From the NCBI GenBank assembly GCA_050246635.1, contig JBFWVR010000002.1, forward strand, positions 373,938-437,937: a stretch of DNA of 64,000 nucleotides, given 5' to 3'. The notes under the pieces were generated by a model. The model worked only from the letters and a program-made list of their open reading frames with translations. It did no database searches and was not told the DNA's origin. The position numbers and the translations under genes were made by a program. Below are positions 2,691-62,982 of this stretch, piece by piece; positions within the stretch are counted from its first letter, which is position 1; each line of letters begins with the position of its first letter. The DNA is from Vicinamibacterales bacterium (GTDB lineage: Bacteria > Acidobacteriota > Vicinamibacteria > Vicinamibacterales > UBA2999).

Positions 2691-4925
2691 TCAGTCTCCA
2701 CGCCTGAACTCCGCGTACACCGGCGCATCCGACTTGTCGCGGTCGACGCGGTCGACGAGGGTGAACCCCGCCCGCTGGAGCAGCCCGGTCGCCTCGTTCT
2801 CCAGTTCGCGGTCCAGTTCCACCAGCAGCGCCGTGAGCGAGGGCGCCGCCAGCGTGTGGGCCGCGCCGCGCAGCACCTCGAGCTCGGCGCCGTCCACATC
2901 GAGCTTGATCGCCGTGGGCGGCGGGAGCCTGTAGGCGCCAATCAGGTCGTCGAGCCGCGTCCCGAGCACGGGCTGCTCGTACTTGCCCTGCGACCGCGAC
3001 AACGACTCGCGCGACTCGAGCGCCCGCATCGCATGCCGGCTCTGCCCCGGCGACAGGTTGCGGTACTTGAAGGCCGCGAGCCCGGTGGTCGACCACAGCG
3101 GCAGCTGCACCGGGACGATGCGCTGCTGGCACCCGTTCAGGACGATGTTGTCGCAGAGGTGCGCGAAGGTGGCATACCCCGGCTCGACCGCGACGACCGT
3201 CGCAAGCGGCTCGCGCTTCGCGGCGATCAGCGAGAACGCGCCGACATTGGCGCCGATGTCGTAGAGCACGGTGTCCGGCCGCACGATGCGTTCGATCCAG
3301 TCGACCGTCCAGGGCTCCTTCGCGCAGGGCCGGGCGCGCCAGTTCCGCTCCTCGGGTGACGTCACGCGGATCTGGACCGGCACGGCCTCGTAATCGAGCA
3401 TCACGGTGTCCCCCGCGGTCGTCTCTCCGGCCGGGGGAGCCGCCTCGGCCGCGGGCCGCTCGGCGGCCGCGCGTGCGGCCGCGCGCCTGGCATCACGCGC
3501 GCGCTGGCGTTCGGCCAGCTTGAGGGTCTGCTCGATCTCGTGGACCGCGACCTTGGTCGCGCGCACGTTGAGGCCGTGCGGCCGGATGAAGCTGCGGACG
3601 AAGTCGCGCTGCGCCTCGACGTCGACCTCCCCGCGCACCGCCGCCGCCAGGGCCGCGCAGTGCGTGGCCAGGTCGGGCGACGCCTGCACGAAGCCGCCGT
3701 GCTCCCGCAGCAGGTAGTGGAAGTGCAGCGTGCCACTCTGCCCGTCCGCCAGCTCGTCCGGCGCCGTGATGGTCAGCACCGGCCGCCCCACGATGGCCGC
3801 CTCGAGCTCGGCGCTCGTGTTCAGGCCGACGGCCGCCTCGGCGTGGTGGAGGCACTCGTACAGGAACTGCGCCCCCGAGAACGTCGTGCGCACGACCACG
3901 GCCCGCTCGGCGTCGAACGGACGGGTGACGCGCACCCGCACCTCGCCGTGCCGCGCCTTCCACGCCAGCCGCTCGCCCTCGTCGCCCCACGCGCGGTTCA
4001 GGTCGGGATGGGCCTTCACGAGGATGTTCGCCCGCTCGAGCCCCGGCGTGCGGCGGACCGCGTCGATCCAGCCCGCGATGAAGCGGTCCTCGTGCTCCTC
4101 CGCGATGAACTTCGACGACGCCAGGTAGGTGATCGTCGGCGCGGACGGGTCGAACCCGAAGAGGCGGTCGTACTCCGCCCGCGACAGCGACGGCCGGAGG
4201 CGGAAGAAGTCGTCGAACCGCGGCGCGCCGGTCACCGCAATCCGGTCGCGGGGCACGCCGTGCAGGTCGACGGCCTCACGCGCCTGGAGCTCGTTCCACA
4301 GGAGCAGCCGGTCGGGCACCTCGTGCATGAGGCCCTTGGTCGAGAGGTTGTCCCAGCTGAAGAGGAGCAACGCAATCGGGATGTCCAGCTCGCGGCAGGC
4401 CTTGACGTAGTCGGCCTGGCTCGACCCGATGTCGACGAGGGGTGAGATCAGGACGAGGTCGGGCGCCTCGCTCTGGATCCACTTCTGGATGCCGCGATCC
4501 GCCGGGATGGCGTTCCCCAGCCTGCGGATGGTGTCCTGCAACCGTTCGATCTCGGCCGGCGTGAGGCCGAGGCCGAGCTCCGCGACGCCCGGCACCGGCT
4601 CCCGCGAGCCATGCGAGACGGTCCGGGCCAGCTTGTCGAACGCGCGGGCGCGCAGCTTGCGTGCGCCGGCGAACGGCGGGGTGAGGTACCGCAGGTAGTC
4701 GCCGGACCGTCGCAGCAGGCTCACGTAGTCGCGCCACTCGTCGTGGCGCTTGCTGTCGCAGGTCGTCGCGGAGACGAGCGGCTGGTCCTGCAGGGCCTCG
4801 GGCAGCTCGAGCACGCCGTCCTGCGCCGCAATCCGCACGCCGTGCCCGCGGGCCGCGAGCGTCGCCACCACGCTGGTGAAGTGGCGCATGTAGCCCATCT
4901 GCTTGATGACGAACAGGATCCGCAT
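2691..4925 (-). CDS. paralog family copy P2 fused via a charged linker to a C-terminal FkbM-family methyltransferase domain
   Basis: 744-aa ORF. The N-terminal ~465 aa carry FSWDNLSTKG, LWNELQAREAVDLHGVP, VKAHP, AVGLNTSAELEAAIVGRPV and GQSGTLHFHYLL. The linker is ERQRARDARRAAARAAAERPAAEAA (nt ~3408-3524). The C-terminus carries VLYDIGANVGAFSL…VVAVEP…IKLDVDGAELEVLRG, which is FkbM/Methyltransf_21-like. Confidence 0.85.
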   Translation of the reverse strand: MRILFVIKQMGYMRHFTSVVATLAARGHGVRIAAQDGVLELPEALQDQPLVSATTCDSKRHDEWRDYVSLLRRSGDYLRYLTPPFAGARKLRARAFDKLARTVSHGSREPVPGVAELGLGLTPAEIERLQDTIRRLGNAIPADRGIQKWIQSEAPDLVLISPLVDIGSSQADYVKACRELDIPIALLLFSWDNLSTKGLMHEVPDRLLLWNELQAREAVDLHGVPRDRIAVTGAPRFDDFFRLRPSLSRAEYDRLFGFDPSAPTITYLASSKFIAEEHEDRFIAGWIDAVRRTPGLERANILVKAHPDLNRAWGDEGERLAWKARHGEVRVRVTRPFDAERAVVVRTTFSGAQFLYECLHHAEAAVGLNTSAELEAAIVGRPVLTITAPDELADGQSGTLHFHYLLREHGGFVQASPDLATHCAALAAAVRGEVDVEAQRDFVRSFIRPHGLNVRATKVAVHEIEQTLKLAERQRARDARRAAARAAAERPAAEAAPPAGETTAGDTVMLDYEAVPVQIRVTSPEERNWRARPCAKEPWTVDWIERIVRPDTVLYDIGANVGAFSLIAAKREPLATVVAVEPGYATFAHLCDNIVLNGCQQRIVPVQLPLWSTTGLAAFKYRNLSPGQSRHAMRALESRESLSRSQGKYEQPVLGTRLDDLIGAYRLPPPTAIKLDVDGAELEVLRGAAHTLAAPSLTALLVELDRELENEATGLLQRAGFTLVDRVDRDKSDAPVYAEFRRGD

Positions 4926-4937
4926 GGTGTCGAGGCG

Positions 4938-5954
4938 TCAGCGGGCGAGGCGCGCCAGCATCCGCAGGTTCTTCCCGTAGCCCCCGGCGTTGGCCAGGAA
5001 TTGCAGCGTGTCGGCGATCCGCTCCATCGCGGAGGTGTCCTCGTGATGGAGCTCGCGGCGCTGCCAGAGGTAGTCCACGAAGTCGAGCCCCTCTGTCTGC
5101 ACGAGCTCCACGGAGAGCCCGTGCCGCTCGAGGAACGCGGCGAGGGTGACAGGCGTGTAGTAGTTGAGGTGGTGGGTCGGCCAGATGAAGTGCGCGCCCG
5201 ATCCCATGAGCAGCCGCGAGGCCGAATCGAAGTTCGGCACGTACAGGTAGACGATCCCTCCCGGGCGCAGCAGCCCGAGGCATCGCTCGAGGGTCGCCCC
5301 CGGATGCACGAGGTGCTCCAGCACGTCGAAGAGCGAGATCGCGTCGAAGCTCGCCGGCTCGAAGCCCGCGTCTTCGAGGGCCGCCGTGCGCAGGTCCAGC
5401 CCTCGCTGCCGCCCGAACGCCACCGCCGACGTGTTCAGGTCGATGCCGCAGGCCCGCCACCCGCGCGCCTGGGCCGCCTCGACGACGAAGCCGGTGCTGC
5501 AGCCGACGTCGAGGTAGGACGGCGCCGTGCCCTCGACGAACCGCGCCATTGTCGCGACACGCTCCTCGCCGAAGCGGGTCACGCGGTACTCGTGGCTCGA
5601 CTCCCCGAGGTCCCGCATGATCGTCTGGTAGTCGGTCGAGCCGTACATCTCGCGATAGTGGTCCTCGTCGAAGACCGGGCTGACGTAGACCATGTCGCAG
5701 GCCGTGCACCGCACGATCGTCAGGTGATCCTTCGCCATTTCCTCGCGGCTGGCGTCGCTGCCGCACGAGGGACAGGCACGCGGAACGAGCAGGTCCTCCG
5801 GGATCCGGCCGTAGCGCGCGATGAGCCCGTCGATGGTGTGCGTGCGCCGCGCGAACAGCTGCGCGTAGGAGTCCTTCGGACGCAGCCGTGCCACGTCGAC
5901 GGGCACGTACTCCGACACCGTGCGGTACGGCAGCGACAGCGGCTTCCTGGTCAT
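4938..5954 (-). CDS. class I SAM-dependent methyltransferase with N-terminal Cys4 zinc-ribbon
   Basis: Part of ORF 4938..6344. Start set at ATG 5954 (MTRKPLSL…) with an ATGA overlap on the upstream stop (tcat 5951-5954). Contains CPSCG…CTACD and YLDVGCSTGFVVEAA…ISLFDVLEHLVHP…LRPGGIVYL. Confidence 0.85.
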   Translation of the reverse strand: MTRKPLSLPYRTVSEYVPVDVARLRPKDSYAQLFARRTHTIDGLIARYGRIPEDLLVPRACPSCGSDASREEMAKDHLTIVRCTACDMVYVSPVFDEDHYREMYGSTDYQTIMRDLGESSHEYRVTRFGEERVATMARFVEGTAPSYLDVGCSTGFVVEAAQARGWRACGIDLNTSAVAFGRQRGLDLRTAALEDAGFEPASFDAISLFDVLEHLVHPGATLERCLGLLRPGGIVYLYVPNFDSASRLLMGSGAHFIWPTHHLNYYTPVTLAAFLERHGLSVELVQTEGLDFVDYLWQRRELHHEDTSAMERIADTLQFLANAGGYGKNLRMLARLAR

Positions 5955-8900
5955 CGCGTGTCTCCGGATCCCGAGCGGGCCTGCAGCAGGGCGCCAAGCC
6001 GTCCGCGCGCCTGGCGTGCGCGGCGCGCCGCGCCCCGACCCAGCCGCCTCATGCCGCCGCCGACCCGCGCCGAGCCTTTCGAGGCGGCCTTCTGCAGTCG
6101 GCGCGGGGCCGCGCGTTTTGACAGTTCCTTGAGCCCTTTCGACACCCGCTTGCGCTGGTGGTGGGCCCACAGCCGGCGTTCCTTGCGGGCGGCCGGTCCG
6201 GCCAGCCGGGCGAGCTGGCCGCCCAGCCACACGGGGCCGGCCAGGGCGAGCCGCAGCAGCCGCGCGCCCACGCCCGCTCGGGCAGGTGCGGCTGCCGGAC
6301 GCGCCGCGAGCTCCGCCAGCGTACCCGCCAGGATCGGCACACATGGCCGCTCGAGCCCCCGTGGCCGGATGAACGCCTCGACGAACCGCCGGGTCTCGTC
6401 CCTGGCGGACTCCGGATCGGCCAGCGACGCGGCGAGCTGGGCGAGGTGCTCCTCGAACGTGCGGCCGACGCGGAGGAAACCGCCGTTCTCGGGCAGGAGG
6501 TACCGGAAGTGGACGGTGCCCTCCTGCGTGCCGGCGAAGTCAGGGGTCAGGATCGCGTGGACCGGGCGTCCGACGATCGCCGCCTCGATCATCGCGCTCG
6601 TGTTCACGCCGACGACGGCGCCGCAGTGGTAGAGCGAGTCGAAGAAGTCGGCGCGGTTCTGGTCGTCGGTCGGGTTGTGCTGGCCCTTCGGGAAGATCGC
6701 CGCGGGCCCGAGGTCCGAGAGATCGGCCTCGCGCCACTGCGCCGCGTTGTAGGGGTGCGGGCGGACGAGCACGTTGGCCTCGCGCAGCCGCGCATCGGGC
6801 GACCGGCGCAGCGCCTCGATCCAGCGGCGCACGAACGGCAGCTCGCTCTGCTCGCCCGAGATGAAGAACGAGGACCCGGTGAACAGCACGATCGGCCGTG
6901 CGGGATCGAGGCCGAGCATCGCCGCGAAGGCCTCGCGTGTCCGGCTGGGCTCGCGGTCGAACCAGCGGTCGAAGGGCTGGGCGCCGGTGACCGCGATCCG
7001 CGACGGTTCCACGCCGTGCATGTCGGCGGCCTCGCGGGCCTGGTGGCCGTTCCACACGGTCACCAGATCCGGCTGGACGCGCAGCAGGCCCTTGTTCGTC
7101 AGGTTGTCCCAGCTGGCGATGCACGCGCAGGTGGGCACCCCGAGCGCCGCCGCCGCGCGCACGAGGTCCACCTGCGGCGAGGCCGCCTCGACGAGGGGCG
7201 TGACGCAGAGGGCGTCGGGCTCGTGCTTGTGGACGAACCCGAGCACCGCGTCCGAGACCGGGACGGCACGCTCGAGGCCCGCCAGCCCCCCGAGCAGGGC
7301 ACGGACGAGCGGGCGCGGCAGGCCGGGCACCAGGTCGAGCCACTGCAGCGCCCGCGGCAGGCACTTGCGCTTCATGCGCGCGCGCAGCACCGGCACGTCG
7401 CGCATCTGCGGATCGAGGTACCGCACGAAGTCCATCGTCCCGCGGACCGCGTCGGCGAAACCGGACCAGCGGTCCCCCCGCGGCGGCACGATGCCCGCGA
7501 AGCGGATGCCGTCCCCGCCGCCGGCGAACTGCTCGATGCGGACGGGCTTCCCCTCGCGCTGCGCGTTGACCGCCACCAGCACCTCGGTGCCGCCGGCCGC
7601 GAGGTATCGCAGCGTCTGGTCGTAGAACCGGAGGTACTCCGGTGACGACATGACGAACAGCACACGCCGCGCGCGCGGCTTCTCGCCATCGGCCGTCGGC
7701 CGGCGCGCCGGACGCCGTGCCGCGGCCTGTGCCGCGACGGCGACCGGATACAGGATCCGCCGGACCAGGCCGGCGAGGGCCGGGGCGCGAGGCGCCCGGC
7801 GCGGCGCCGTGGGCAACGACTCCACGACGTCGGCGAAGACCCGGCAGGCCGGCACGTCCAGGCCCTGCGGCCGCACGAACGATCCGATGAACGCCCGCCG
7901 CCCCTGCGTCCCCTGTTCGGGGCTCGCCAGGAACGCGGAGAGCTGCTCGCAGTGCTGCGCCACCGAGTCGGCGACGGTCAGCAGGCCACCGCTGACGCCC
8001 TTCAGATGCTGGAAGTGCAGCGTGCCTTCCTGGGTGGCCGAGAACTCCGCGGCACGGATGCTGTAGACCGGGCGGCCGACGATGCCCGACTCGATGAGCG
8101 CGCTCGTGTTCACGCCGACGACGGCCGCGCTGTAGAACATCGAGTGGTAGTAGTCGTTGCGCGCCTCCTGGTCGACCGGGTTGGCGCCCTCACGCGGCCA
8201 GATCGCCACGTCCGGATAGCCGGAGAGATCGACCGACCGCCACTGCTCCGCGTTCTGGGGGTGCGGACGGATCAGCAGCGCGGCCTCACGCAGTGCCGGG
8301 TCGGCGCTCCCGCGGATGCCCTCGATCCACGACCGCACGAAGCCGACCTCATACGGGGCGATGAACGGCGAGGAGCAGAGGTACAGCAGGATCGGGCGAT
8401 CGGCCGGCAGGCCCACCCGCGCGCAGAACGCCGCACGATCCAGCGACGGCTCGGCGTCAAACCAGTGATCGTAGGCCGTCGCGCCCGTGACGCGCACGAG
8501 GCCCGGCGCCACGCCGTGGAAGCGTCCGGCCTCCACGCGCTGCGCCTCGTTCCAGACAGTGACGGCGTCCGGGATCTCGTGGATGAGCCCCTTCGTCGTC
8601 AGGTGATCCCAGCTCCCGACCGCCAGCATCGTCGGCAGGTGGCGGCGCTTCGCGCCACGGACATAGTCCACCTGTTGCGAGCCGAAGTATAGCAGCGGCG
8701 TCACGACGACGACGTCGGGCGCGACCTCGTCCAGCACCTGGTCCACATGGGGGCTGGGCGGCAGCGAACGCTCGCACATGCGGATGGCCCGGGCCAGGAC
8801 GGCGCGAATGGCCCCGACGCGGGCGAGCGGCAGCTTCGCCAGCGGCGCGGCAAACGCCGGCACCTGTTCCGACGCGCGGCCGCGAAGCGCCGGCGCGGCG

Positions 8901-9175
8901 TCGTACTGCGGATCCAGGTACCGCCAGTAGTCGAGCGACAGGCGGAAGCCGGTTCCCAGCGCGCGCCAGACGTGGGTCTTGGGTGGGGCGACGACGCTCC
9001 ACGTGAAGGCGTCCGGGTAGGCCGCGGCCAGCCGCTCCACGGTGCGCATGCCGCCGAGGCTGTCGCGGCGATCCGCGACCAGGTGGATGCGGTGACCACG
9101 CGCCGCCAGCTCGCGCAGCCCGCTCTCGAAGTTGCGCAGGAAGCCGAAGTGCCCGGCGGCGAACAGGATCTTCAT
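5951..9175 (-). CDS. paralog family, tandem double-domain protein (copies P3a+P3b) with basic C-terminal tail
   Basis: 1074-aa ORF. The full motif set occurs twice: GSWDHLTTKG…LIRPHPQN…VVGVNTSALIESGIVGRPV…TQEGTLHFQHL, then ASWDNLTNKG…VLVRPHPYN…VVGVNTSAMIEAAIVGRPV…TQEGTVHFRYLL. A basic tail follows (…HHQRKRVSKGLKELSKRAAPRRLQKAASKG…). Confidence 0.85.
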   Translation of the reverse strand: MKILFAAGHFGFLRNFESGLRELAARGHRIHLVADRRDSLGGMRTVERLAAAYPDAFTWSVVAPPKTHVWRALGTGFRLSLDYWRYLDPQYDAAPALRGRASEQVPAFAAPLAKLPLARVGAIRAVLARAIRMCERSLPPSPHVDQVLDEVAPDVVVVTPLLYFGSQQVDYVRGAKRRHLPTMLAVGSWDHLTTKGLIHEIPDAVTVWNEAQRVEAGRFHGVAPGLVRVTGATAYDHWFDAEPSLDRAAFCARVGLPADRPILLYLCSSPFIAPYEVGFVRSWIEGIRGSADPALREAALLIRPHPQNAEQWRSVDLSGYPDVAIWPREGANPVDQEARNDYYHSMFYSAAVVGVNTSALIESGIVGRPVYSIRAAEFSATQEGTLHFQHLKGVSGGLLTVADSVAQHCEQLSAFLASPEQGTQGRRAFIGSFVRPQGLDVPACRVFADVVESLPTAPRRAPRAPALAGLVRRILYPVAVAAQAAARRPARRPTADGEKPRARRVLFVMSSPEYLRFYDQTLRYLAAGGTEVLVAVNAQREGKPVRIEQFAGGGDGIRFAGIVPPRGDRWSGFADAVRGTMDFVRYLDPQMRDVPVLRARMKRKCLPRALQWLDLVPGLPRPLVRALLGGLAGLERAVPVSDAVLGFVHKHEPDALCVTPLVEAASPQVDLVRAAAALGVPTCACIASWDNLTNKGLLRVQPDLVTVWNGHQAREAADMHGVEPSRIAVTGAQPFDRWFDREPSRTREAFAAMLGLDPARPIVLFTGSSFFISGEQSELPFVRRWIEALRRSPDARLREANVLVRPHPYNAAQWREADLSDLGPAAIFPKGQHNPTDDQNRADFFDSLYHCGAVVGVNTSAMIEAAIVGRPVHAILTPDFAGTQEGTVHFRYLLPENGGFLRVGRTFEEHLAQLAASLADPESARDETRRFVEAFIRPRGLERPCVPILAGTLAELAARPAAAPARAGVGARLLRLALAGPVWLGGQLARLAGPAARKERRLWAHHQRKRVSKGLKELSKRAAPRRLQKAASKGSARVGGGMRRLGRGAARRARQARGRLGALLQARSGSGDTR

Positions 9176-9199: not shown

Positions 9200-10192
9200 T
9201 CAGTCGGCATAACGGTTGTCGCGATACGCGCGATTGAGGAGCTGGGCCCGCGCGGCGTCGGGATCCGGATCCTCCGCCTTGCGCCGCTGCTTCCGGACCA
9301 GGCGCTCCGTCTGCGCCTCGATGGACTGGCGGACCTCCTCAGCCACGTGCGTCCACGGCTCGCCATCCGGCAGGCCCGCGCCCGCGGCGCGCGCCGCGAG
9401 CTCGGCGGCGACATCGAAATGCTTGAAGGCCAGCGCCAGCATGATCTGCTGCGCCAGGCGCCTGGACGCGACGGTCGCGTCCGCGGTCCCTGGATCCGCC
9501 TCCCGCAGGTAGAGGCAGTGCGCCCAGGTCGGCACCCGTCGCGAATAGGCGTCCTTGCGATAGCCGTGGCGCCGCAGCAGCGTGCGGTAGAGGCCGAAGA
9601 GGCCGAAGCCCTCGGCGCGCAGGAAGGCGTCGATGTCGGCGAACAGTGACTGTCCCTTGTAGAAGGGGTGGAAGAGCGCCTCCACGTAGATGCCCATGAC
9701 GCTGCCCAGCAGGCGGGGCCCCGACTGGAGAATCTCGAGCTCCGTGCCCTGGGTGTCGAGCTTCAGGAAACAGGCGTCCTCGAACCCGTATCGCGCGGCG
9801 GCGGTGTCGAGGCGCGTGGTGGGCACCGTGGCCACGCCGGAGTACTCGAAGTCGCGCGCGAGGCAGAAGCGGCCGACGACCTCGGGATCGGGGGGCAGGA
9901 GCGATCCCATGCCCGGGTTGGCGGTGAGGTAGAGCTGCCCGCTTCCCTCCTGCCCGGCAATGGCGTCGGTGATCACCGTGACGGACCGCCACGGGACCTC
10001 CTGCGCCAGCGTCTCGCGGAGCCGCTCGGCCTCACGGGCGTCAGGCTCGCACGTGAAGTAGTCGGCGACGGGCGCGAACGGCAGGAGCTGCGGCACCGCC
10101 GCCCCGCGCCCGCCGACGTCCACGAACTTCAGGCCGGCGCCGGCCAGCAGCCCGGCGAGCACCGGCATGTGATCGAGAGGCTGGTACTTCAC
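9200..10192 (-). CDS. FkbM-family methyltransferase
   Basis: C-terminal 330 aa of ORF 9200..11047. Proposed GTG start at 10192-10190 forms a GTGA overlap with the upstream stop; ATG 10168 is an alternative. Contains FVDVGGRGA…, CFLKLDTQGTELEILQSG and a charged tail. Confidence 0.75.
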   Translation of the reverse strand: MKYQPLDHMPVLAGLLAGAGLKFVDVGGRGAAVPQLLPFAPVADYFTCEPDAREAERLRETLAQEVPWRSVTVITDAIAGQEGSGQLYLTANPGMGSLLPPDPEVVGRFCLARDFEYSGVATVPTTRLDTAAARYGFEDACFLKLDTQGTELEILQSGPRLLGSVMGIYVEALFHPFYKGQSLFADIDAFLRAEGFGLFGLYRTLLRRHGYRKDAYSRRVPTWAHCLYLREADPGTADATVASRRLAQQIMLALAFKHFDVAAELAARAAGAGLPDGEPWTHVAEEVRQSIEAQTERLVRKQRRKAEDPDPDAARAQLLNRAYRDNRYAD

Positions 10193-19938: not shown

Positions 19939-19952
19939 GCGGGCGCGCTCCC

Positions 19953-25645: not shown

Positions 25646-25649
25646 CGAC

Positions 25650-34877: not shown

Positions 34878-34882
34878 GACGT

Positions 34883-34911: not shown

Positions 34912-34954
34912 TGCGGGCAATTCCGGGCCGCCCCCCTTGAATCCCCCCGTCCGC

Positions 34955-55151: not shown

Positions 55152-56045
55152 CTACCGCAGCTCCGCGAACTGGCGCGCGAACGTCCGCAGGTACCCGGCC
55201 GGCGCCTGCTGCTCCGGGCCGAAGGCGAATCCCCGGCGGCCCAGTTCGTCATGCGCCCAGGCCAGCTGGTAATACGGCACGTCCGGCATCACGTGGTGCT
55301 CGAAATGGTGGGCATACCCATAGGGGGCGATCGTCAGGTACTCGAACCAGGTCGGTCGCGTGGTGCGCATGGCCTCGGCCCCGCCACGCGTCGCGTGGTG
55401 CTCCACGAACGTCCGGATGCGGTTCACCGCGAAAGGCACCGTCGCCAGTGGCGCGAGCCACACCACACCGTACGCCCACCAGTAGCCGGTCACGGCATAG
55501 GCGCCGGCGGCAATCAGCAGTTGCACCACGGCAAACGCGGCCAGACGGCCAGGGCCGGCGCCCGCCCGGGGCTGGCCGTAGCGCCGCAGGAACGCCGTCA
55601 GCGCGGTCACCCCCGTGAGATCCCGGATGAAGCCCGCCACGAGCTGCCTCCGGCGATCGTAGGGACCGTACAGGTCGTAGTACGGGTCGGTCGGTCCGCA
55701 ACAGTCGCGGTGGTGCATCAGGTGCTCGCGGCGGTAGCCCTCGACCGTGTTGAGCACGGGCAGGCAGACCAGCGCGTTCGCGAGCCGGTCGTTCCAGATG
55801 CGGTCCCGGTGCATGAAGTAGTGCGACGCCTCGTGCGTCAGGATGCCCAGGCCGTTCTGGACGAACCCGGCGACCAGACCGAGCGCGATCAGCCCCCAGA
55901 GCGGGTCCAGCGTGACGGCCACCACCGCCGCGAGCAGCAGCGGGGCCACCGTGAGGCCGTAGGCGAGCGCGAACCGGCGGGTGGGATCGTTCGGCAGCTC
56001 CCGGCGCGCGACCCGGATTCCGGTCCGGACTCGGTCGAGATCCAT
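55152..56045 (-). CDS. membrane fatty-acid desaturase family protein
   Basis: Part of ORF 55152..56072. ATG 56045 is preferred because GGAAGGAGGG lies 9 nt upstream. Three His boxes are present: HEASH, HLMHH, HHFEHH. Confidence 0.8.
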   Translation of the reverse strand: MDLDRVRTGIRVARRELPNDPTRRFALAYGLTVAPLLLAAVVAVTLDPLWGLIALGLVAGFVQNGLGILTHEASHYFMHRDRIWNDRLANALVCLPVLNTVEGYRREHLMHHRDCCGPTDPYYDLYGPYDRRRQLVAGFIRDLTGVTALTAFLRRYGQPRAGAGPGRLAAFAVVQLLIAAGAYAVTGYWWAYGVVWLAPLATVPFAVNRIRTFVEHHATRGGAEAMRTTRPTWFEYLTIAPYGYAHHFEHHVMPDVPYYQLAWAHDELGRRGFAFGPEQQAPAGYLRTFARQFAELR

Positions 56046-56070
56046 CGAAAGGCGCCCTCCTTCCGGCGTC

Positions 56071-56076
56071 ATTCTA
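56071..56076 (-). promoter_or_regulatory. candidate -10 element TAGAAT upstream of the desaturase gene
   Basis: The minus strand reads GCCCTGTAGAATGACGCCGGAAGGAGGGCGCCTTTCGATG, giving -10-like, then SD, then ATG 56045 in sensible order within a 53-nt gap. Confidence 0.35.
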
Positions 56077-56634: not shown

Positions 56635-57630
56635 TCAGTGTCCCTCGATGGCCGCGACGTCGAGCGGGTTCGCCTTGAGCCGCTCGATATCGGCGTCGAC
56701 CATCATGCCCACCAGCTGCTCGAACCCCACCGCGGGTTCCCACGCCAGCTGCCGGCGCGCCTTGGCGGCATCGCCGACGAGGAGGTCGACCTCGGCGGGC
56801 CGCAGGAACCGCGGATCGACCTTGACGTGCTTCTGCCAGTCGAGCCCCGCGTGCGCGAACGCCACCTCGACCAGCCGGCGCACCGACTGCGTCTGTCCGG
56901 TCGCGATCACGTAGTCGTCCGCCGTGTCCTGCTGCAGCATGAGCCACATCGCCCGGACGTAGTCGCCGGCAAACCCCCAGTCGCGCTGCGCGTCGAGGTT
57001 ACCCAGGCGAAGGTCGTCGGCCAGCCCCAGCTTGATGCGGGCGACGCCGTCGCTGACCTTGCGGGTCACGAACTCCAGCCCGCGACGGGGTGACTCATGG
57101 TTGAACAGGATGCCCGACACCGCGAACATCCCGAAGCTCTCCCGGTAGTTCACCGTGATGTAGTGCCCGAAGACCTTCGACACGCCGTACGGGCTCCGCG
57201 GGTAGAAGGGCGTGTCCTCGGACTGCGGCACCTCCCGCACCTTCCCGTACATCTCGCTGGAGGACGCCTGGTAGATCCGGATGCTCGTGTCGACGTGCCG
57301 GATCGCCTCGAGCACGCGGGTGATGCCCAGCGAGTTGAAGTCGCCGGTCAGCAACGGCTGATCCCAGGAGGCGGGCACGTACGACATCGCCGCCAGGTTG
57401 TAGAACTCGTGGGGGCGGAAGTCCTCGACAATCCGCAGGATCGAGAACTGGTCGAGCAGGTCGGCGGGCCGCAGCGTCACGCGGTCGAGAATGTGCTGGA
57501 TGCGCCAGAGATTGGGCGCGCTCGAGCGCCGCACCACGCCGAGCACCTCGTACCCCTTCTCGAGCAGCAATTCCGCCAGATACGAGCCGTCCTGACCCGT
57601 GATGCCGGTGATGAGGGCGCGCTTTGACAT
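56635..57630 (-). CDS. gmd: GDP-mannose 4,6-dehydratase
   Basis: 331-aa ORF: [25 protein letters not shown]…NLAAMSYV…YGVSKV…[12 protein letters not shown]…[16 protein letters not shown]. This is an unambiguous Gmd signature. A GAGGGA SD lies 5 nt upstream of the ATG. Confidence 0.95.
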
Positions 57631-57712: not shown

Positions 57713-57718
57713 TAGAAT
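57713..57718 (+). promoter_or_regulatory. candidate -10 element TAGAAT overlapping the annotated ATG 57717
   Basis: gctgcgTAGAATGaacggcGTGaga. If this element is functional, transcription would start near the in-frame GTG 57726 and the mRNA would be leaderless. Confidence 0.3.
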
Positions 57719-58523
57719 GAACGGCGTGAGAGCCATCCAGCGTCTGCTGCTCGCCGCCTACGCCCTGGCCTGCCGCCTGGGACTCCTGCGGCTGCCAGGC
57801 GCCTCCCGCATCGTCCTGACCGCGTACGAGGCCTACAAACGGCGGATCGAGGCGCCCTTCCTGCCGGGCATGGCTCCCCTCGTCACCCCCGGCTCGCTCG
57901 CCCTCGACATCGGCGCCAACGTCGGCTTCTTCACCGAGCCGTTCGCGCGCTGGGCCGGACCGGAGGGACGCGTCATCGCGGTGGAACCAGACCCCGCCAA
58001 CTTCGCCGCGCTCGCGCACCGGGTCTCGTCGCGAGGCCTGGCGACCACGGTGACCCTCGTGGAAGCCGCCGCCGCCGCGACGGCCGGCCCGGGGCTGACC
58101 CTCGCGCAGGACCCCGACCATCCAGGCAACCATCGCCTCGCCCCGGACGGCCTCCCCGTGCGCGGGGTCACGGTCGACGAGCTCGTGGCCCGCGTCCCGG
58201 ACCACCGCGTTTCGCTGATCAAGATCGACGTGCAAGGGGCAGAGCTGCTCGTCCTGCGTGGCGCGGCGCAGACCCTGGCCCGCCACCGTCCCGCCCTGCT
58301 CGTCGAAATCGACGATGACGCGCTACGGGCGCTCGGAGCGTCGGCCGGCGAAGTGTGCGACTACCTTGCCGGCGCCGGGTATGCCCCGCATGCCGTGTCG
58401 GCCCGCGGCGTGGGGGAACCCCTCGCGCGCGGCGAGGTGGTCGAACGTTCCGCGCGCGGCGAGTACCTCGACGTGCTGTTCGTCAGCGGCGCCGCTACCG
58501 GCGGGGACGGGCCACGAGGTTGA
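57717..58523 (+). CDS. FkbM-family methyltransferase
   Basis: 268-aa ORF containing ALDIGANVGFFTEPFA…VIAVEPDPANFAAL…LIKIDVQGAELLVLRGA. The start may instead be GTG 57726. Confidence 0.8.
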   Translation: MNGVRAIQRLLLAAYALACRLGLLRLPGASRIVLTAYEAYKRRIEAPFLPGMAPLVTPGSLALDIGANVGFFTEPFARWAGPEGRVIAVEPDPANFAALAHRVSSRGLATTVTLVEAAAAATAGPGLTLAQDPDHPGNHRLAPDGLPVRGVTVDELVARVPDHRVSLIKIDVQGAELLVLRGAAQTLARHRPALLVEIDDDALRALGASAGEVCDYLAGAGYAPHAVSARGVGEPLARGEVVERSARGEYLDVLFVSGAATGGDGPRG

Positions 58524-59334
58524 TACCGGCGCCGTGCGGCACCGATGCGACGAGGCGCCGCAGATCTCCCACCGGCCGCAGATGGTCGTCGAGAAGATCA
58601 TACCCGCGGCTGGTGAAGAAGCCGGGCAGCGACTCCGGCGCCTCGCCCCGTTCCTCGATCAGATAGGGACAGAACTCGAAGACCACCGTCGGGCGCAGGC
58701 GCTCGACGACGGCAGTCGCCCCGGCAACGATGGGGAGTTCGTGACCGTCGACGTCCAGCTTGACGAGATCGATGGCGTCGAGCCCGAGGGAAGCCGCCAG
58801 TCCGTCGAGCGTCATGAACGCCGCGCCACCGGCAGGTGCGCCCACCCCGCCGTGCACGGGGTGCCGCTCACCACCCGGCGTCAGGGGCCAGCCGGAGAAG
58901 TAGCGTTCCTCGACGATGCCGCCAGGCGCGCCCAGCGCGGCGTGCACGGCCGTCACCCGATCCGCCAGCCCCGGGTTCAGCGCGACGTTGCCCCGCAGCC
59001 GATCGAAGGCGGCCCGCGACGGTTCGACCGCCACGACCCGCCCGGACGGTCCGACCGCGGCGGCCAGCGGCAAGGCATGGGCCCCGACGTTCGCGCCAAT
59101 GTCGACGACGACCGATCCCGGTGACACCAGGTGCCGCAGCAAACGGCCCGCGCCGGCCTCGTAGGTGCCGAGGTAAATCCCGAGCTGGACGCCTTCGCTG
59201 ATGTCGAGCGCCCAGCGGACCCCGCGCCGCCGGCAGATGACCTCGGAGCCCGGGCGGCCGACCAGTCTCCGCGCCGTGCGCACGACCTGGTACAAGCGGC
59301 CGGCAATGGTCAGCTTCGCGCGTGTCGTCAGCAT
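58495..59334 (-). CDS. FkbM-family methyltransferase
   Basis: 279-aa ORF containing VVDIGANVGAHALPLA…VVAVEPSRAAFDRL…LVKLDVDGHELPIVAGA. Its 3' end overlaps the convergent 57717..58523 gene by 29 nt. Confidence 0.8.
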   Translation of the reverse strand: MLTTRAKLTIAGRLYQVVRTARRLVGRPGSEVICRRRGVRWALDISEGVQLGIYLGTYEAGAGRLLRHLVSPGSVVVDIGANVGAHALPLAAAVGPSGRVVAVEPSRAAFDRLRGNVALNPGLADRVTAVHAALGAPGGIVEERYFSGWPLTPGGERHPVHGGVGAPAGGAAFMTLDGLAASLGLDAIDLVKLDVDGHELPIVAGATAVVERLRPTVVFEFCPYLIEERGEAPESLPGFFTSRGYDLLDDHLRPVGDLRRLVASVPHGAGINLVARPRR

Positions 59335-59335
59335 C

Positions 59336-60103
59336 TCAAATGTCGCGGCGCCGGAGACGGATCACGGCGAACATCGCCAGGTGGGGCATGAGCGGGCCGA
59401 GGGCCTCCTCGATCCGGCGGCAGAGACCGAAAGACCAGCCGGGTACGAACCGCGCGCGGGTGACCCCACCCGACAGCAGGTAGGCGAAGGGCATGCACGG
59501 GTCGACAGCCTCGATGCGCCAGGCGGGGAACTCGCGTTCGAATTGCGCCCGGTCCCGCCCGAACACCAGCCAGGGCAGGGCGCCGTTGGCCGCGGAGAGC
59601 CGGCCGGTACCCGGCAGTTCCCAGGCCGTGGCATCGGGTTCGAAGGGCTCGTGGTGCAGCCAGCGGTAGACCACCCGCGACCAGGCCGAGACCCAGGGCT
59701 CCACCATGATGATCACCCCGCCGGGCCTGACCACCCGCGCGGCGTCGGCGAAAAACGCCCGCGGCCGCCCGACGTGGTGCAGCACGTTGGTCATCACGAT
59801 GGCCTTCAGGCTGCCCCCGGCCAGCGGCAGCGCCGTCGCGTCGAGCGCCAGGCGGGCCGGCCGGACCGGGACGATTTCGGACGCGATGAGACCGGGAACC
59901 CGCTCGTCGAGAAACCCGCCGCCCGCCCCCACCTCGAGCACCCGCCCGGGCCCCGACGGCAGGGCCGCCTGGATCCGGTCGTACCACTCGTCATAGACGC
60001 GGCGCAGGAACGGCTTGGACCGGACGATGGCGCCATGCACCGGCACGAGGCCGGGATCGTCGGGGGCGAACCCGCGCGCCAGCGGATGGGTCAACAGGCT
60101 CAT
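59336..60103 (-). CDS. class I SAM-dependent methyltransferase
   Basis: Part of ORF 59336..60442. ATG 60103 is in an ATGA overlap (tcat 60100-60103). Contains VLEVGAGGGFL…AIVMTNVLHHVGRP…VRPGGVIIMVEP. Confidence 0.8.
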   Translation of the reverse strand: MSLLTHPLARGFAPDDPGLVPVHGAIVRSKPFLRRVYDEWYDRIQAALPSGPGRVLEVGAGGGFLDERVPGLIASEIVPVRPARLALDATALPLAGGSLKAIVMTNVLHHVGRPRAFFADAARVVRPGGVIIMVEPWVSAWSRVVYRWLHHEPFEPDATAWELPGTGRLSAANGALPWLVFGRDRAQFEREFPAWRIEAVDPCMPFAYLLSGGVTRARFVPGWSFGLCRRIEEALGPLMPHLAMFAVIRLRRRDI

Positions 60104-61257
60104 GCCCGCCCCTGGGGGCTCGCGGGCGCGGCGCCCGTCACCGCCGTGATGACGCGTGCCTGCTCCTCGTCGGTGAGCTGGTAGAAGAGCGGCAGGCGGA
60201 CCAGGCGATCGGCCACGTCCTCGGTCACCGGGCACTGGCCGTCCTGCCCGCCGAACCGCCGGCCCATCTCGGAGAGGTGCAGCGGCTGGTAATGGAAGAC
60301 GAGCAGGATGCCGTCGGCCCGGAGCCGCGCAATCAGGGCGTCCCGGTCCGCGAGCGAGGGCAGCAGCATGTAGAAAAGGTGTGCGGGGTGCCGGCAGCCG
60401 TCGGGCACGGCCGGCAGGCCCACACCCGACGCCGCCGCCCACGGCGCGAGCGCGTCGGCATAACGCGCCCAGATCACCTGCCGCCGCGCCTGGATGGCGT
60501 CCCGCGCCTCGAGCTGGGCCCAGAGATAGGCGGCCAGCAGGTCGGACGGCAGGTAACTCGACCCGAGGTCCGCCCAGGTATACCGGTCGACTTCGCCGCG
60601 GAAGAACCGGCTCCGGTTCGTGCCCTTCTCGCGGATGATCTCGGCGCGCTCCACGTATCGCGGGTCATTGATCAGCAACGCGCCGCCCTCGCCGCACGTC
60701 AGGTTCTTGGTCTCGTGGAAGCTGAGCGTCGAGAGCGCACCGAGGCTGCCGAGCGGGCGGTCCCGGTAGCTGCCGAACAGGCCGTGGGCCGCGTCCTCCA
60801 CAATCGGCAGGCCGTGGCGGGCCGCGATCGCCCCGAGGGTGTCCATCGCACAGGCCACCCCCGCGTAGTGAACGACCAGGATGGCCCGGGTGCGCGGGGT
60901 GATGGCGGCTTCGACCAGGCGCTCGTCCAGGTTGAGGGTGTCGGGCCGGACGTCGACGAACACCGGGCGGGCGCCGCGCAGCACGAACGCGTTGATCGTC
61001 GACACGAAGGTGAAGGCCGGGCAGATCACCTCGTCGCCGGGCGCGATGTCGAGGAGCAGGGCCGCCATCTCGAGCGCGTGCGTGCACGACGTGGTCAGCA
61101 GCGCCTTGCGGCTGCCCGTGACGGCCTCGAGCGCCGCGTGGCACCGTTTCGTGAACGGGCCGTCGCCGGAGATGTGCCCCCCGGCCAGCGCCTCGCGCAT
61201 GTAGTCCAGCTCGCGGCCGGTCACCGCCGGCCGGTTGAACCAGATCGGATGCTGCAA
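60100..61257 (-). CDS. wecE: DegT/WecE-family NDP-4-keto-6-deoxyhexose 4-aminotransferase
   Basis: Part of ORF 60100..61452. TTG 61257 is preceded by GGAGG. IWFNRPAVTGRELDYMREALAGGHISGDGPFTKRC…SCTHALEMAALLLDI…FTFVSTINAFVLRGARPVFVDVRPDTLNLDE…SFHETKN…REKGTNRSRFFRGEVDKYTW-like blocks are colinear with E. coli WecE as I remember it. Confidence 0.85.
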   Translation of the reverse strand: MQHPIWFNRPAVTGRELDYMREALAGGHISGDGPFTKRCHAALEAVTGSRKALLTTSCTHALEMAALLLDIAPGDEVICPAFTFVSTINAFVLRGARPVFVDVRPDTLNLDERLVEAAITPRTRAILVVHYAGVACAMDTLGAIAARHGLPIVEDAAHGLFGSYRDRPLGSLGALSTLSFHETKNLTCGEGGALLINDPRYVERAEIIREKGTNRSRFFRGEVDRYTWADLGSSYLPSDLLAAYLWAQLEARDAIQARRQVIWARYADALAPWAAASGVGLPAVPDGCRHPAHLFYMLLPSLADRDALIARLRADGILLVFHYQPLHLSEMGRRFGGQDGQCPVTEDVADRLVRLPLFYQLTDEEQARVITAVTGAAPASPQGRA

Positions 61258-61467
61258 CGAACCTCCGTGCCCACGCCGGGCCCCGCCGTCCCGGGCCGCG
61301 CGAGGCTGGCCTGCCGGGCAGGGGTGGCCTATACTTGGGGCCGTCCCTGGGCCCCGTGGGGCCCGTTCAACCGAGTCAACGCGACGTACGACGGTGTCAC
61401 CCCGCGGCTCCGCCACCGCCGCCACCCGGCGGCCGGTCGGCACCGCGCACACGCCACTAGGTTACCA

Positions 61468-62982
61468 GTGAACGCCTCCGTCATCGTGCCGCCGGTGGTC
61501 TGCCACAACCTGGACGTGCACACGGGGATCCCGTTCATGCCGCACATGGCGGGACACCTGGCCGGCATGCTCCGTCACGCCGGCCACGCCGTGCACGTGG
61601 TCGACTGCTTCGGCCTGCAACCCAACCACCGCCGGGTGTCGGAGCCGTTCATGCTCATGGGTGCCGACGTCGATGGCGTGCCGGCCCGCCTGCCCGCCGG
61701 CACCCGGGTTGCGTTCATCTACTGCCGGACGATCGCGGAGTTCATCGCGGTCGAGCTGATCATCGCGGCCCTCCGCCGTGAGCGGCCCGAGATCGGCATC
61801 GTCCTGTTCGAGAACGTCCAGGCCGTGACGTCCTACTCGCTCCGGCACGTGGCGGACGAGTTCGTCGCCCACGGCGCGGACGTCGTGATGCTCGGGGAAC
61901 CGGAGTCGCGCGCCGACGCGGTGGCCACCGCGCTGGCGGCGGGCGCGCCCCTCGACCACGTGCCGGGCCTCGTCTTCCGCGCGCCGGACGGCACCCGCCG
62001 CACGGGCGACGATGTGCTCGAGCGCGACCTGAACGCGCTGCCGTTCCCGGCCTGGGACCTGTTCCCGCTCGAGGGCTACTGGTCGGCGGGCTTCGCCCAC
62101 GCCCCGGTCCGCCGCGGCGAGAAGTTCGTGCCCCTGCTCACGTCGCGCGGGTGCCCGTACCGGTGCACCTTCTGCATCGCGCCGGAGGTCAACCCCACCT
62201 GGCGGTCCCGCACGGCGGCCAATGTCGTCGACGAGATGGAGCATGTCCACCGGACGCTCGGCGTCACCGACTTCCACGTCTCCGACCTCGACCCGACCGT
62301 GAGCGATCGCCGCACGCAGGAGATCTGCCGCGAGATCATCCGCCGGCGGCTGCCCGTCACGTGGAAGCTGGCGCAGGGGACGAAGATCGAGACGATCAAG
62401 AGCGAGGCCACCCTCGACCTGATGGCCGAGGCCGGCTGCCGGTTCGTCTCGTTCTCGCCCGAGAGCGGCTCGTCGCGGCTGCTGAAGATCATGAACAAGC
62501 CGTTCGACCACGAGCACGCGCTGCGCATGGCCCGGCACATGCACCGCCTCGGCATCCGGATGCAGGCCGTGTTCATCGGCGGCGTGCCGGGCGAGACCGA
62601 GGCCGACCGCGCCGAGAGCGTGGCCTACGCGCGGCGGCTGATCCAGGCCGGCGTCGACGAGATCTCCCTCGTGATCTTCACCCCGCTGCCGGGCGCCGCC
62701 CTCTCGGGCGCCATCTCCGGCTATCGCCACTACTCGGAGTGCACGCCGTCACCGGCCTGGCGCGAGGATTACGGCGAGCTGATGGCGTACCGGCGGCGGA
62801 TGTACGTGAACTTCTTCCTCTCGAAGCTGCGGTGGCAGCCGCGCAAGGTGCTGCGCGAGGCCGTCGGCCTGGTGACCACGCGCTTCGAGACCAAGATGGA
62901 GATGTCGCTCTTCAAGCAGGTCAAGCTGTATGGCCTGCGCTACTTCCCCGCCCTCTTCCCGTCGCTCCGCGAGGCCCGGTGA
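61468..62982 (+). CDS. B12-binding-domain radical SAM protein (class B rSAM, possible methyltransferase)
   Basis: C-terminal 504 aa of ORF 60277..62982, with a GTG start at 61468 (VNASVIVPPVV…). Has an N-terminal flavodoxin-like B12 module and a CPYRCTFC radical-SAM cluster motif. The upstream part of the ORF is antisense to wecE. Confidence 0.75.
   Translation: MNASVIVPPVVCHNLDVHTGIPFMPHMAGHLAGMLRHAGHAVHVVDCFGLQPNHRRVSEPFMLMGADVDGVPARLPAGTRVAFIYCRTIAEFIAVELIIAALRRERPEIGIVLFENVQAVTSYSLRHVADEFVAHGADVVMLGEPESRADAVATALAAGAPLDHVPGLVFRAPDGTRRTGDDVLERDLNALPFPAWDLFPLEGYWSAGFAHAPVRRGEKFVPLLTSRGCPYRCTFCIAPEVNPTWRSRTAANVVDEMEHVHRTLGVTDFHVSDLDPTVSDRRTQEICREIIRRRLPVTWKLAQGTKIETIKSEATLDLMAEAGCRFVSFSPESGSSRLLKIMNKPFDHEHALRMARHMHRLGIRMQAVFIGGVPGETEADRAESVAYARRLIQAGVDEISLVIFTPLPGAALSGAISGYRHYSECTPSPAWREDYGELMAYRRRMYVNFFLSKLRWQPRKVLREAVGLVTTRFETKMEMSLFKQVKLYGLRYFPALFPSLREAR

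Follow-up and report, generated by a model that had tools for sequence, protein, structure and literature searches.

Organization of the locus

The window analyzed here, a stretch of 64,000 nucleotides from contig JBFWVR010000002.1 of a Vicinamibacterales bacterium (positions 373,938 to 437,937), carries an export-type glycan cluster of 62 kb, in which about one third of the genes encode a methyl-adding enzyme. The window probably represents one compact cell-surface glycan locus of approximately 62 kb, which depends on a Wzm/Wzt ABC transporter and specifies many distinct methylated positions. Stop-to-stop frames of the window were scored by the GC content of the third and second codon positions (GC3 and GC2), and approximately 48 genes were called; the raw lists of open reading frames (ORFs) are crowded with shadow frames. 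All of the approximately 48 ORFs were scanned against Pfam with curated gathering (GA) scores, and NCBIfam/TIGR models were used with their own cutoffs. The genes are densely packed or overlapping, and almost all of them are located on the minus strand. The GC content is uniform at 71-74% throughout, and the 64-kb window contains neither tRNA genes nor composition breaks of the mobile-island kind. No unrelated genes were recognized in the window; some small ORFs and C-terminal domains are assigned to no family. The closest genomic relatives of the Wzt ATPase, with sequence identities of 49-54%, are from metagenome-assembled genomes (MAGs) of Acidobacteriota/Vicinamibacterales, and the product of 16832-19321 is 100% identical to a protein of a Vicinamibacterales MAG. 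The host is therefore an uncultured acidobacterium from soil, and an actinobacterial origin, for which the GC content and the likeness to mycobacterial systems might speak, was rejected. Since the acidobacterial host is of the Gram-negative type, an O-antigen, a capsule, or an exopolysaccharide is the natural frame for the interpretation of the locus.

Methyltransferases

Fifteen methyltransferase (MT) domains score above the Pfam GA thresholds: seven of the FkbM type, two of the TylF type, one of the CmcI/rhamnosyl O-MT family, two sugar C-MTs, and three generic class I enzymes. Together with one domain identified by fold only, one doubtful domain, and one radical S-adenosylmethionine (SAM) protein, they bear out the preliminary description of the window, which had counted 17-18 MT-type domains of at least five families, more than a terminal cap requires. 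The fifteen firm domains are located where that description had placed them and differ from it in start codons alone. The SAM-binding motif I is intact in 14 of the MT domains, and the MT-encoding ORFs have coding-type GC3 values of 0.86-0.96. Judged by sequence, the MTs in the window belong to families with known sugar O- and C-MTs.

The seven FkbM ORFs match PF05050 with scores of 46-83 bits (GA 22.7), and all seven domains contain motif I (hh[DE]hGAxxG), for example as FYDIGANVG, MLDVGANIG, or FVDVGGRG. Two of them, in the proteins encoded at 2691-4925 and 16832-19321, are fused to glycosyltransferase modules and also match TIGR01444 with 91 and 79 bits, respectively. The others are encoded at 9200-10291 (minus strand; 53 bits, FVDVGGRG motif, ortholog with 55% identity in the related metagenomic locus L030), 34826-35707 (plus strand; 53 bits), 45281-46354 (minus strand; 55 bits), 57717-58523 (plus strand; 83 bits), and 58495-59334 (minus strand; 60 bits). 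The FkbM paralogs are 31-47% identical among themselves, which is consistent with distinct specificities.

The two TylF-type sugar O-MTs match PF05711 with 80 and 50 bits (GA 23). The first (10189-11022, minus strand; 80 bits) has an ortholog with 69% identity in L030, and the second (37099-37929, plus strand; 50 bits, and 58 bits to Methyltransf_24) begins with a charged helix. Among proteins of solved structure, the deoxysugar O-MTs NovP, MycF, and CalS11 come closest to the first enzyme, with E values from 1e-9 to 1e-4. Three further ORFs, all on the minus strand, encode class I SAM MTs. The ORF at 4938-6170, whose start is probably near 5954, scores 72 bits against Methyltransf_23 and 59 bits against Methyltransf_11, and has motif I in the form YLDVGCSTG. 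The enzyme encoded at 52844-53818 (Methyltransf_23, 91 bits) has CalS10, UbiG, and CgnL as its nearest relatives in the PDB, and that encoded at 59336-60103 (Methyltransf_11, 38 bits; Methyltransf_23, 34 bits) contains the motif VLEVGAGGG.

The remaining firm domains are located in one operon. The CmcI/rhamnosyl O-MT family enzyme (27820-28620, minus strand) matches PF04989 (RMNT_CmcI) with 243 bits over profile positions 1-206 of 206. Its score against the NCBIfam equivalog RhmsylMtase is 74 bits, far below the cutoff of 400, and it is therefore a member of the family rather than an ortholog of the mycobacterial enzyme. The ORF at 30028-31275 (minus strand) encodes a nucleoside diphosphate (NDP)-hexose 3-C-MT of the TylCIII/TcaB9 type, with the full three-domain set of Zn-binding Methyltransf_13, a class I core (Methyltransf_23), and Methyltransf_14. 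Over its full length it is homologous to the crystallized sugar 3-C-MTs MtmC, KijD1, and TcaB9 (E 2e-86), and the structure 4rv9 aligns over residues 13-412 with the same E value. A divergent sugar C-MT-like enzyme (25650-26951, minus strand) matches Methyltransf_23 with 67 bits, Methyltransf_14 with 28 bits, and MtmC with an E value of 1e-10. It has no Pfam match to Methyltransf_13, and its likeness to 3-C-MTs is only partial.

Methyltransferase density and conservation of the locus

As a control for MT density, the MT domains of the window were turned into hidden Markov models, with which 455 kb of DNA from 29 further Wzt-centred loci of many phyla were searched. The 64-kb window contains 16 MT-like ORFs (2.5 per 10 kb), as against nine in the 455 kb of control loci (0.2 per 10 kb), a contrast that is overstated because this control is biased to close relatives. 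The enrichment in MTs is large and is sustained across 60 kb. One related MAG has an MT density equal to that of the window. Eight MT-like ORFs are present in the 22.5 kb of L030, and the related loci L031, L032, and P0002 contain three MT-like ORFs, at least four MTs identified by Pfam, and five MTs in 17 genes, respectively.

The core of the locus recurs in synteny in four related metagenomic loci. It comprises a helix-turn-helix (HTH) regulator, Wzm/Wzt, a fusion of a GT-B glycosyltransferase module with an FkbM domain (approximately 820 aa), a GT-B-NanM fusion (approximately 850 aa), a GT2 glycosyltransferase, a TylF-type MT, and additional GT-B proteins. In L030, L031, and L032 the GT-B-FkbM protein adjoins the HTH/Wzm/Wzt genes.

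GT-B modules and their fusions to methyltransferase domains

A module of approximately 450 aa occurs 16 times in 12 large proteins of the window, as recognized from the paralogy of the module sequences. Its AlphaFold (AF2) model (predicted local distance difference test (pLDDT) score 86.6, predicted TM-score 0.88) consists of two Rossmann-like domains. In a Foldseek search the model matched UDP-GlcNAc 2-epimerases, MshA, and CalG1/4 with E values from 1e-11 to 1e-9 and TM-scores of 0.5-0.56. No Pfam family matches the module above threshold; the single Glyco_transf_4 match of 24 bits is below GA. The module scores 16-35 bits against the BFO_1060 glycosyltransferase model (cutoff 200). A search of PDB sequences with the module profile returned no meaningful relative, so that only the fold search was informative. 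A profile search of 1.84 billion proteins identified 9,093 cluster representatives, 2,223 of them at E<=1e-30, and these homologs often have two or three modules per protein. From its predicted fold, the module is probably an unclassified glycosyltransferase (GT) family.

Three proteins of the window, all encoded on the minus strand, share the layout of GT-B module, spacer, and MT-fold domain. The protein encoded at 16832-19321 consists of a GT-B module, a helical spacer of approximately 80 residues rich in E, R, K, and A (residues 464-544), and an FkbM MT (residues 625-772; PF05050, 46 bits). No other element of the locus is as conserved as this GT-B-FkbM protein of approximately 820 aa, which has over 3,000 homologs with identities of 55-60%. 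In the protein encoded at 2691-4925, a GT-B module (residues 1-475, assigned by module paralogy) is followed by a C-terminal FkbM MT (residues 556-706; PF05050, 49 bits; motif I LYDIGANVG). Its linker is shorter and consists of a helical part of about 25 residues and a subsequent Pro/Ala-rich stretch, and the protein also gives a weak Pfam match to RfbT. The third protein (14191-16815) has a GT-B module, a charged helical spacer (residues ~508-562), and a NanM-like class I MT-fold domain (residues ~553-874) with a degenerate SAM loop.

Further GT-B proteins, all encoded on the minus strand, contain one or two modules. Two modules each are present in the proteins encoded at 5951-9175, 22109-25141, 38664-41756, and 46391-48898 (835 aa). 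The 939-2684 protein and the 700-aa protein encoded at 48895-50997, which has one module, end in charged, in the former case helical, tails, and the 10944-13304 protein combines a GT-B module with a C-terminal domain of 320 aa (residues 466-786). A GT2 gene is followed by a gene for a GT-B module protein in two places, at 32027-34794 (32027-33289 and 33286-34794) and at 42482-45213 (42482-43729 and 43726-45213). The members of these pairs are paralogous, with identities of 56% and 61%, and a third GT-B paralog, encoded at 48895-50997, is 71% identical to that at 43726-45213. The sequence similarities indicate an expansion within the locus. Neither the C-terminal 320 residues of the 10944-13304 protein nor the tails of the proteins encoded at 939-2684, 48895-50997, 22109-25141, 38664-41756, and 5951-9175 match any Pfam or PDB entry, even at E<=10. 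The C-terminal domain of the 10944-13304 protein is retained in the L030 and L031 orthologs, with a motif like GPWLDD..LELLYWIPFVRW.

Helical segments rich in E, R, K, and A are present in seven proteins: those encoded at 939-2684 (residues 508-568), 14191-16815 (508-562), 16832-19321 (464-544), 48895-50997 (591-666), 25169-25693 (123-162), and 41760-42593 (172-224), and the TylF-type MT encoded at 37099-37929, where the segment is N-terminal (8-57). As coiled coils or as single alpha-helices, the segments may organize a multi-enzyme complex or serve as chain-length rulers.

Degenerate methyltransferase-like domains and the radical SAM protein

The C-terminus of the 14191-16815 protein, which had been proposed as a possible MT, matches no Pfam, NCBIfam, or PDB sequence. 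However, a homolog search identified 11 relatives with E values from 1e-17 to 1e-83, and each of them matches TIGR04371, "putative sugar O-MT" (best E 1.7e-28), whereas the copy from the window does not match this model at E<=0.1. An AF2 model of the domain, calculated from the homolog alignment, has a pLDDT of 83.7, and its PDB matches are exclusively class I SAM MTs; SpnF-type cyclases with the MT fold occur among them. The SAM loop (residues ~692-700) reads QPGARWAG, as against EIGAGWGG or EIGGGWGG in the homologs, and the orthologs from L030 and L031 retain WEIGGGWGGFA. The model and the alignment suggest that the C-terminus truly has the MT fold and that its ability to bind SAM was probably lost in this genome. 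The change of the loop looks like lineage-specific decay of one MT within an MT-rich locus. The class I MT fold of the proposed domain thus stands, and its SAM loop is not intact. The unassigned tails of other proteins did not yield additional MT domains, and a search of all window proteins with the NanM profile matched only the 14191-16815 protein.

The protein encoded at 53818-55140 (minus strand) has an MT-like N-terminal domain, previously listed among the MTs, followed by a GT2 domain similar to AglJ and polyprenyl-phosphate-hexose synthases. The N-terminus scores 21 bits against Methyltransf_23, below the GA of 27, yet the match covers profile positions 6-163 of 164. Its motif I, VVEVAPRHR, has no Gly loop. 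The likeness to the full profile agrees with the earlier assignment, the score and the loop do not, and on this sequence evidence we treat the domain as MT-like and degenerate.

The ORF at 61468-62982 (plus strand) encodes a radical SAM protein, putatively of class B, the B12-binding type, with a score of 84 bits against Radical_SAM (PF04055) and the motif CPYRCTFC (CxxxCxxC) at residue 229. The radical SAM part of its previous designation as a B12-radical SAM protein is well founded. Residues 5-412 align to many B12-radical SAM models of NCBIfam, all with scores far below cutoff, and no B12-binding domain was matched by Pfam. The best model matches include methylases (P-MTs and HpnR) as well as non-methylases (BchE, HpnJ, and AprD4), and the protein is therefore a putative methylase only.

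Exporter and nucleotide sugar supply

The exporter genes are located on the minus strand. The Wzm ABC-2 permease (19953-20846) matches PF01061 with 62 bits. The Wzt ATPase (20839-22095), identified by ABC_tran (PF00005) and TagH/Wzt-like models, has a C-terminal extension of approximately 160 aa, which is a possible carbohydrate-binding module (CBM). No relative of the extension was found among PDB sequences. An HTH regulator of the MarR/EPS type (19318-19956, minus strand; HTH_24, TIGR04176 sub-threshold) is encoded beside them and is conserved in L030, L031, and L032.

A contiguous CDP-glucose-based operon at 25650-32150, on the minus strand, contains the two C-MT-type genes and the CmcI-type O-MT gene described above, together with four genes of sugar activation and conversion. 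These encode a glucose-1-phosphate cytidylyltransferase (31257-32150; TIGR02623, 327 bits, cutoff 300), an NDP-hexose 4,6-dehydratase-like short-chain dehydrogenase/reductase (SDR; 26828-27895; 186 and 181 bits to the CDP- and dTDP-glucose 4,6-dehydratase models, sub-threshold), an RmlC-type 3,5-epimerase (29501-30031; TIGR01221, 167 bits, cutoff 156), and an SDR epimerase/reductase that is a candidate 4-ketoreductase (28584-29564; Epimerase, 120 bits). The gene content predicts that the operon would produce a 3-C-methyl, O-methyl 6-deoxyhexose, reminiscent of CDP-vinelose.

Other nucleotide sugar enzymes, also encoded on the minus strand, are a GDP-mannose 4,6-dehydratase (56635-57630; TIGR01472, 431 bits, cutoff 415), a WecE-type dTDP-4-keto-6-deoxyhexose 4-aminotransferase (60100-61452; NF008687, 574 bits, cutoff 375), and a sugar N-formyltransferase-like protein (130-942; Formyl_trans_N, 60 bits; ArnA-N and dTDP-Qui4N formyltransferase models sub-threshold). 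In addition to the GT-B modules, the window encodes three stand-alone GT2s, among them the GT2 of the conserved core (13265-14194, minus strand; orthologs in L030 and L031), the GT2 domain of the 53818-55140 protein, and one GT61-family enzyme (35704-37029, plus strand; PF04577, 72 bits). The total number of GT modules is approximately 22.

Comparison with known systems

In ABC-transporter-dependent O-polysaccharide systems, the terminator is always part of a protein with a coiled-coil molecular ruler, at times together with GT modules; the known terminators are a methyltransferase, a kinase-methyltransferase, or a 3-deoxy-D-manno-octulosonic acid (Kdo) transferase (PMC11231755; PMC3482155). 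Only terminated chains are exported, through recognition by the Wzt carbohydrate-binding module (PMC11231755; PMC3482155). In ORF6 of Klebsiella pneumoniae O7 the order of domains is MT, kinase, coiled coil, GT2, and GT2 (PMC11231755; PMC3482155). The window shares with the systems of Escherichia coli O8/O9a WbdD, K. pneumoniae O12 WbbB, and O7 ORF6 the Wzm/Wzt exporter and multi-module GT polymerases. As in these terminators, MT and GT modules are combined on one polypeptide with a long helical spacer between them in two of the window proteins, whereas the linker of the 2691-4925 protein is shorter. However, the GT modules of the window are unclassified GT-B instead of GT4 or GT2, and the terminator-like MT is of the FkbM type, C-terminal, and lacks a kinase domain. 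Three such proteins are present instead of one, at least 12 further MTs have no counterpart, the CBM of Wzt is not recognizable, and the host is acidobacterial.

Because of the terminator-type layout of the 16832-19321 protein, its conservation, and its position beside HTH/Wzm/Wzt in L030-L032, we infer by analogy that it is a candidate chain terminator. The other stand-alone MTs would act on NDP-sugar precursors or on residues within the chain or its side chains. Since three MT-type domains are on proteins with the terminator layout, part of the MT load would belong to the machinery of capping and termination.

The mycobacterial methylmannose polysaccharide (MMP) and methylglucose lipopolysaccharides (MGLP) are, like the product predicted from the genes of the window alone, glycans with many O-methyl groups. 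MMP is produced by a four-gene cluster of MeT1, the hydrolase MmpH, pMeT3, and ManT (PMC9883506). The polymethylated polysaccharides are described as cytoplasmic (PMC2674218). In contrast, the window contains 48 genes, a transporter, approximately 22 GT modules, and no recognized hydrolase, and it is set apart by its architecture, so that the earlier expectation of machinery different from the mycobacterial one holds. That MMP is polymethylated by one putative 3-O-MT and one end-capping MT means that the number of MT genes reports distinct sites rather than the degree of methylation. The heavily O- and C-methylated glycan that had been predicted is therefore to be divided into two parts: the O-methyl and C-methyl-branched sugars are a sound prediction from sugar-MT families within an exporter-bearing glycan locus, whereas the number of MTs is no measure of how heavily the glycan is methylated. 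That the product may be hydrophobic or a glycolipid, as had also been proposed, is conjecture, and genes for lipid assembly of the polyketide synthase or acyltransferase kind are absent from the window. By this comparison, the many different MTs indicate that many distinct positions would be methylated in a complex heteroglycan or in several glycoforms.

The locus of the common polysaccharide antigen (CPA, a D-rhamnan) of Pseudomonas aeruginosa resembles the window in having Gmd, Wzm/Wzt, GT-B-type GTs, and MTs. It encodes two MTs, which are adjacent and WbdD-like, and methylated 6-deoxy sugars occur in its product (PMC3560663). Unlike the window, CPA has a simple trisaccharide repeat, no pathway for a C-methyl branch, and no GT-MT fusions.

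The TylF/MycF/NovP O-MT and TylCIII/TcaB9/MtmC 3-C-MT families are shared with the deoxysugar tailoring of actinomycete antibiotics, of which everninomicin is a heavily methylated oligosaccharide. Unlike in those pathways, there is no aglycone or polyketide synthase (PKS) machinery in the window, activation is CDP-based, and the context is that of an exported polymer. RfbT/WbeT of Vibrio cholerae and rhizobial NoeI are FkbM-family sugar 2-O-MTs that act as single cap or Nod-factor MTs; they share the FkbM-family domain with the seven paralogs of the window, two of which are fused to GT-B modules.

Proposed assembly of the glycan and alternative explanations

The gene content suggests how the glycan may be assembled. 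Three nucleotide-sugar routes would supply the precursors. The CDP-glucose route, with its dehydratase-like SDR, 3-C-MT, second C-MT-like enzyme, 3,5-epimerase, reductase, and CmcI-type O-MT, would lead to a C-methyl-branched, O-methylated 6-deoxyhexose; the GDP-mannose 4,6-dehydratase would lead to GDP-6-deoxyhexoses; and the WecE-type transaminase with the formyltransferase would lead to an N-formyl 4-amino-4,6-dideoxyhexose. The chain would be assembled on the cytoplasmic face of the membrane by the approximately 22 GT modules, comprising 16 GT-B modules, GT2s, and GT61. Approximately 12 stand-alone or fused sugar O-MTs of the FkbM, TylF, and class I types would each act on a chemically distinct residue or position. 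Such numbers of O-MTs and cytoplasmic GT modules together suggest that the glycan either is long and non-repetitive or has a very complex repeat unit. Termination and chain length may be controlled by one or more of the proteins encoded at 16832-19321, 2691-4925, and, in its decayed form, 14191-16815, as in the WbdD/WbbB/ORF6-O7 paradigm. Wzm/Wzt would export the chain, and the polyprenyl-phosphate-hexose synthase with the YfhO-like GT-C protein described below may decorate it in the periplasm.

Several observations weigh against this reading. Among the 48 ORFs of the window, neither an initiating polyprenyl-phosphate sugar transferase nor a WaaL ligase nor an outer-membrane component for export was found. 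Genes for these partners are frequently located elsewhere in the genome. The Wzt extension does not match Wzt_C significantly (E 0.1, 13 bits, profile positions 4-127 of 143). The GT-B module is placed in no GT family, and its top fold matches include UDP-GlcNAc 2-epimerases. The spacer could be a single alpha-helix instead of a coiled coil. Because two MT-like domains are degenerate, others might be inactive too, and the approximately 22 GT modules could mean that the locus serves more than one glycan. A literature search for the product chemistry of any Vicinamibacterales glycan, and for glycan methylation or FkbM in Acidobacteria/Vicinamibacteria, returned nothing relevant.

The main rival reading is that the window is a glycan island from which several polysaccharides or glycoforms are made, each with its own terminator or cap MT and one or two methylated sugars, by ordinary systems placed side by side or duplicated. 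We regard it as rather unlikely. It would explain why three proteins have the layout of GT-B, spacer, and MT-fold domain, why GT2+GT-B pairs are duplicated (56-71% identity), and why the GT modules are far more numerous than is usual for one repeat unit. The numbers of units and of Wzm/Wzt genes vary among the related loci, with two Wzm genes in L001-L005 and two ABC ATPases in L031, and partial redundancy exists between the two MTs of P. aeruginosa CPA (PMC3560663). On the other hand, the Pfam scan found a single Wzm/Wzt pair in the window, and neither Wzx/Wzy nor a second exporter. The genes are tightly packed, almost all on one strand, and the FkbM paralogs, with identities of 31-47%, diverged long ago and are not recent duplicates. 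A single Wzm/Wzt-dependent glycan locus remains our preferred reading.

Two other explanations concern the MTs themselves. Many of the domains might be non-catalytic, serving as scaffolds or carbohydrate-binding pseudo-enzymes, or be redundant copies in decay, so that few real methylations occur. The loss of the EIGAGWGG loop from the 14191-16815 protein, kept by its orthologs, the N-terminal domain of the 53818-55140 protein without a Gly loop, and the SpnF-type cyclases among the fold matches are of this kind. However, 14 domains keep a canonical motif I, the scores exceed the family thresholds, the GC3 values of 0.86-0.96 are those of coding sequence, and several orthologs are conserved at 55-69% identity in L030, which makes general inactivity improbable. 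It is more improbable still that the MTs act chiefly on a non-glycan product, that is, a lipid, a polyprenol, or a small molecule. FA_desaturase-family, UbiA, and B12-radical SAM proteins are encoded in the locus, and the radical SAM and UbiA genes are linked to the core in another MAG as well. Against this, the window contains no genes for PKS, nonribosomal peptide synthetases, acyltransferases, or terpene synthases; the MTs belong to typical sugar-MT families, and two of them are physically fused to GT-B modules; and the other genes of the locus encode GTs, enzymes of NDP-sugar supply, and an ABC exporter for polysaccharide.

The enzyme families encoded in the window are already known, and, by comparison with characterized systems, the locus appears to work like a Wzm/Wzt O-antigen or capsule system with methyl termination. 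Novel features are the large size of the MT complement, the fusions of GT-B, spacer, and FkbM or NanM domains, a GT-B family that has not been classified, a CDP-based route to a C-methyl sugar branch within a polymer locus, and the lineage of the host. No paper describing such a locus, such fusions, or glycans of the host lineage was found, and we know of no description of the envelope chemistry of Vicinamibacterales, which are common in soil metagenomes. A bolder proposal, which we make tentatively and which may well prove too broad, is that Vicinamibacterales wear an undescribed class of exported heteroglycan with at least 10 distinct O-methyl positions and C-methyl-branched sugars. It would be built by a complex of the new GT-B family, organized by helical or coiled-coil spacers and equipped with several methylating terminators, and methylation, as a trait of the lineage, would adjust surface hydrophobicity and resistance to glycosidases in soil. 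If the prediction of a glycan methylated at many positions holds, the locus would contain, to our knowledge, the richest set of sugar MTs in a single bacterial glycan locus. Glycans rich in methyl ethers withstand many glycoside hydrolases and reduce the polarity of the surface. Resistance to hydrolases and low polarity could influence how long bacterial necromass persists in soil and how well desiccation is tolerated there. The locus may be used as a source of regiospecific sugar O- and C-MTs, including GT-MT fusions, it offers a sizeable unclassified GT-B family for study, and it provides a test case for the coiled-coil terminator model of ABC-transporter-dependent assembly beyond Proteobacteria.

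Additional features of the window and of related loci

At 50769-55140, an AglJ/ArnC-like polyprenyl-phosphate-hexose synthase GT2, a YfhO-like protein, and a class I MT are encoded next to each other, in an arrangement that resembles a periplasmic glycosylation unit of the CsbB/YfhO type. The YfhO-like protein (50769-52847, minus strand) has about nine transmembrane segments and is a GT-C candidate for periplasmic glycosylation (YfhO, 25 bits, sub-threshold). An FA_desaturase-family membrane di-iron protein is encoded at 55152-56072; the closest models, the GntB hydroxylase and carotenoid ketolases/hydroxylases, are sub-threshold.

The gene of the radical SAM protein is translationally coupled to that of a UbiA-family prenyl/phosphoribosyl transferase similar to decaprenyl-phosphate phosphoribosyltransferase (62979-63965, plus strand; UbiA, 70 bits). 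In the P0002 locus, which is 74% identical, the same pair, together with an extra radical SAM-SPASM gene, is located directly beside the glycan core. Possible roles of the pair are in the supply of a lipid carrier, the supply of a pentofuranose donor, or C-methylation.

In the related Vicinamibacterales loci L001-L005 and L007, two Wzm permease genes in tandem follow Wzt, at ~11.2-13.0 kb of the respective locus, as against one in the window, and L031 carries two ABC ATPase genes. A distance of 59 kb separates the formyltransferase-like gene, at one end of the window, from the WecE-type aminotransferase gene that would feed it, at the other. On both sides, the locus may extend past the window. 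In L032, the HTH regulator is separated from the GT-B/FkbM core by a Sulfotransfer_3 sulfotransferase gene (6890-8116), and relatives of the locus may swap methylation for sulfation at some positions.

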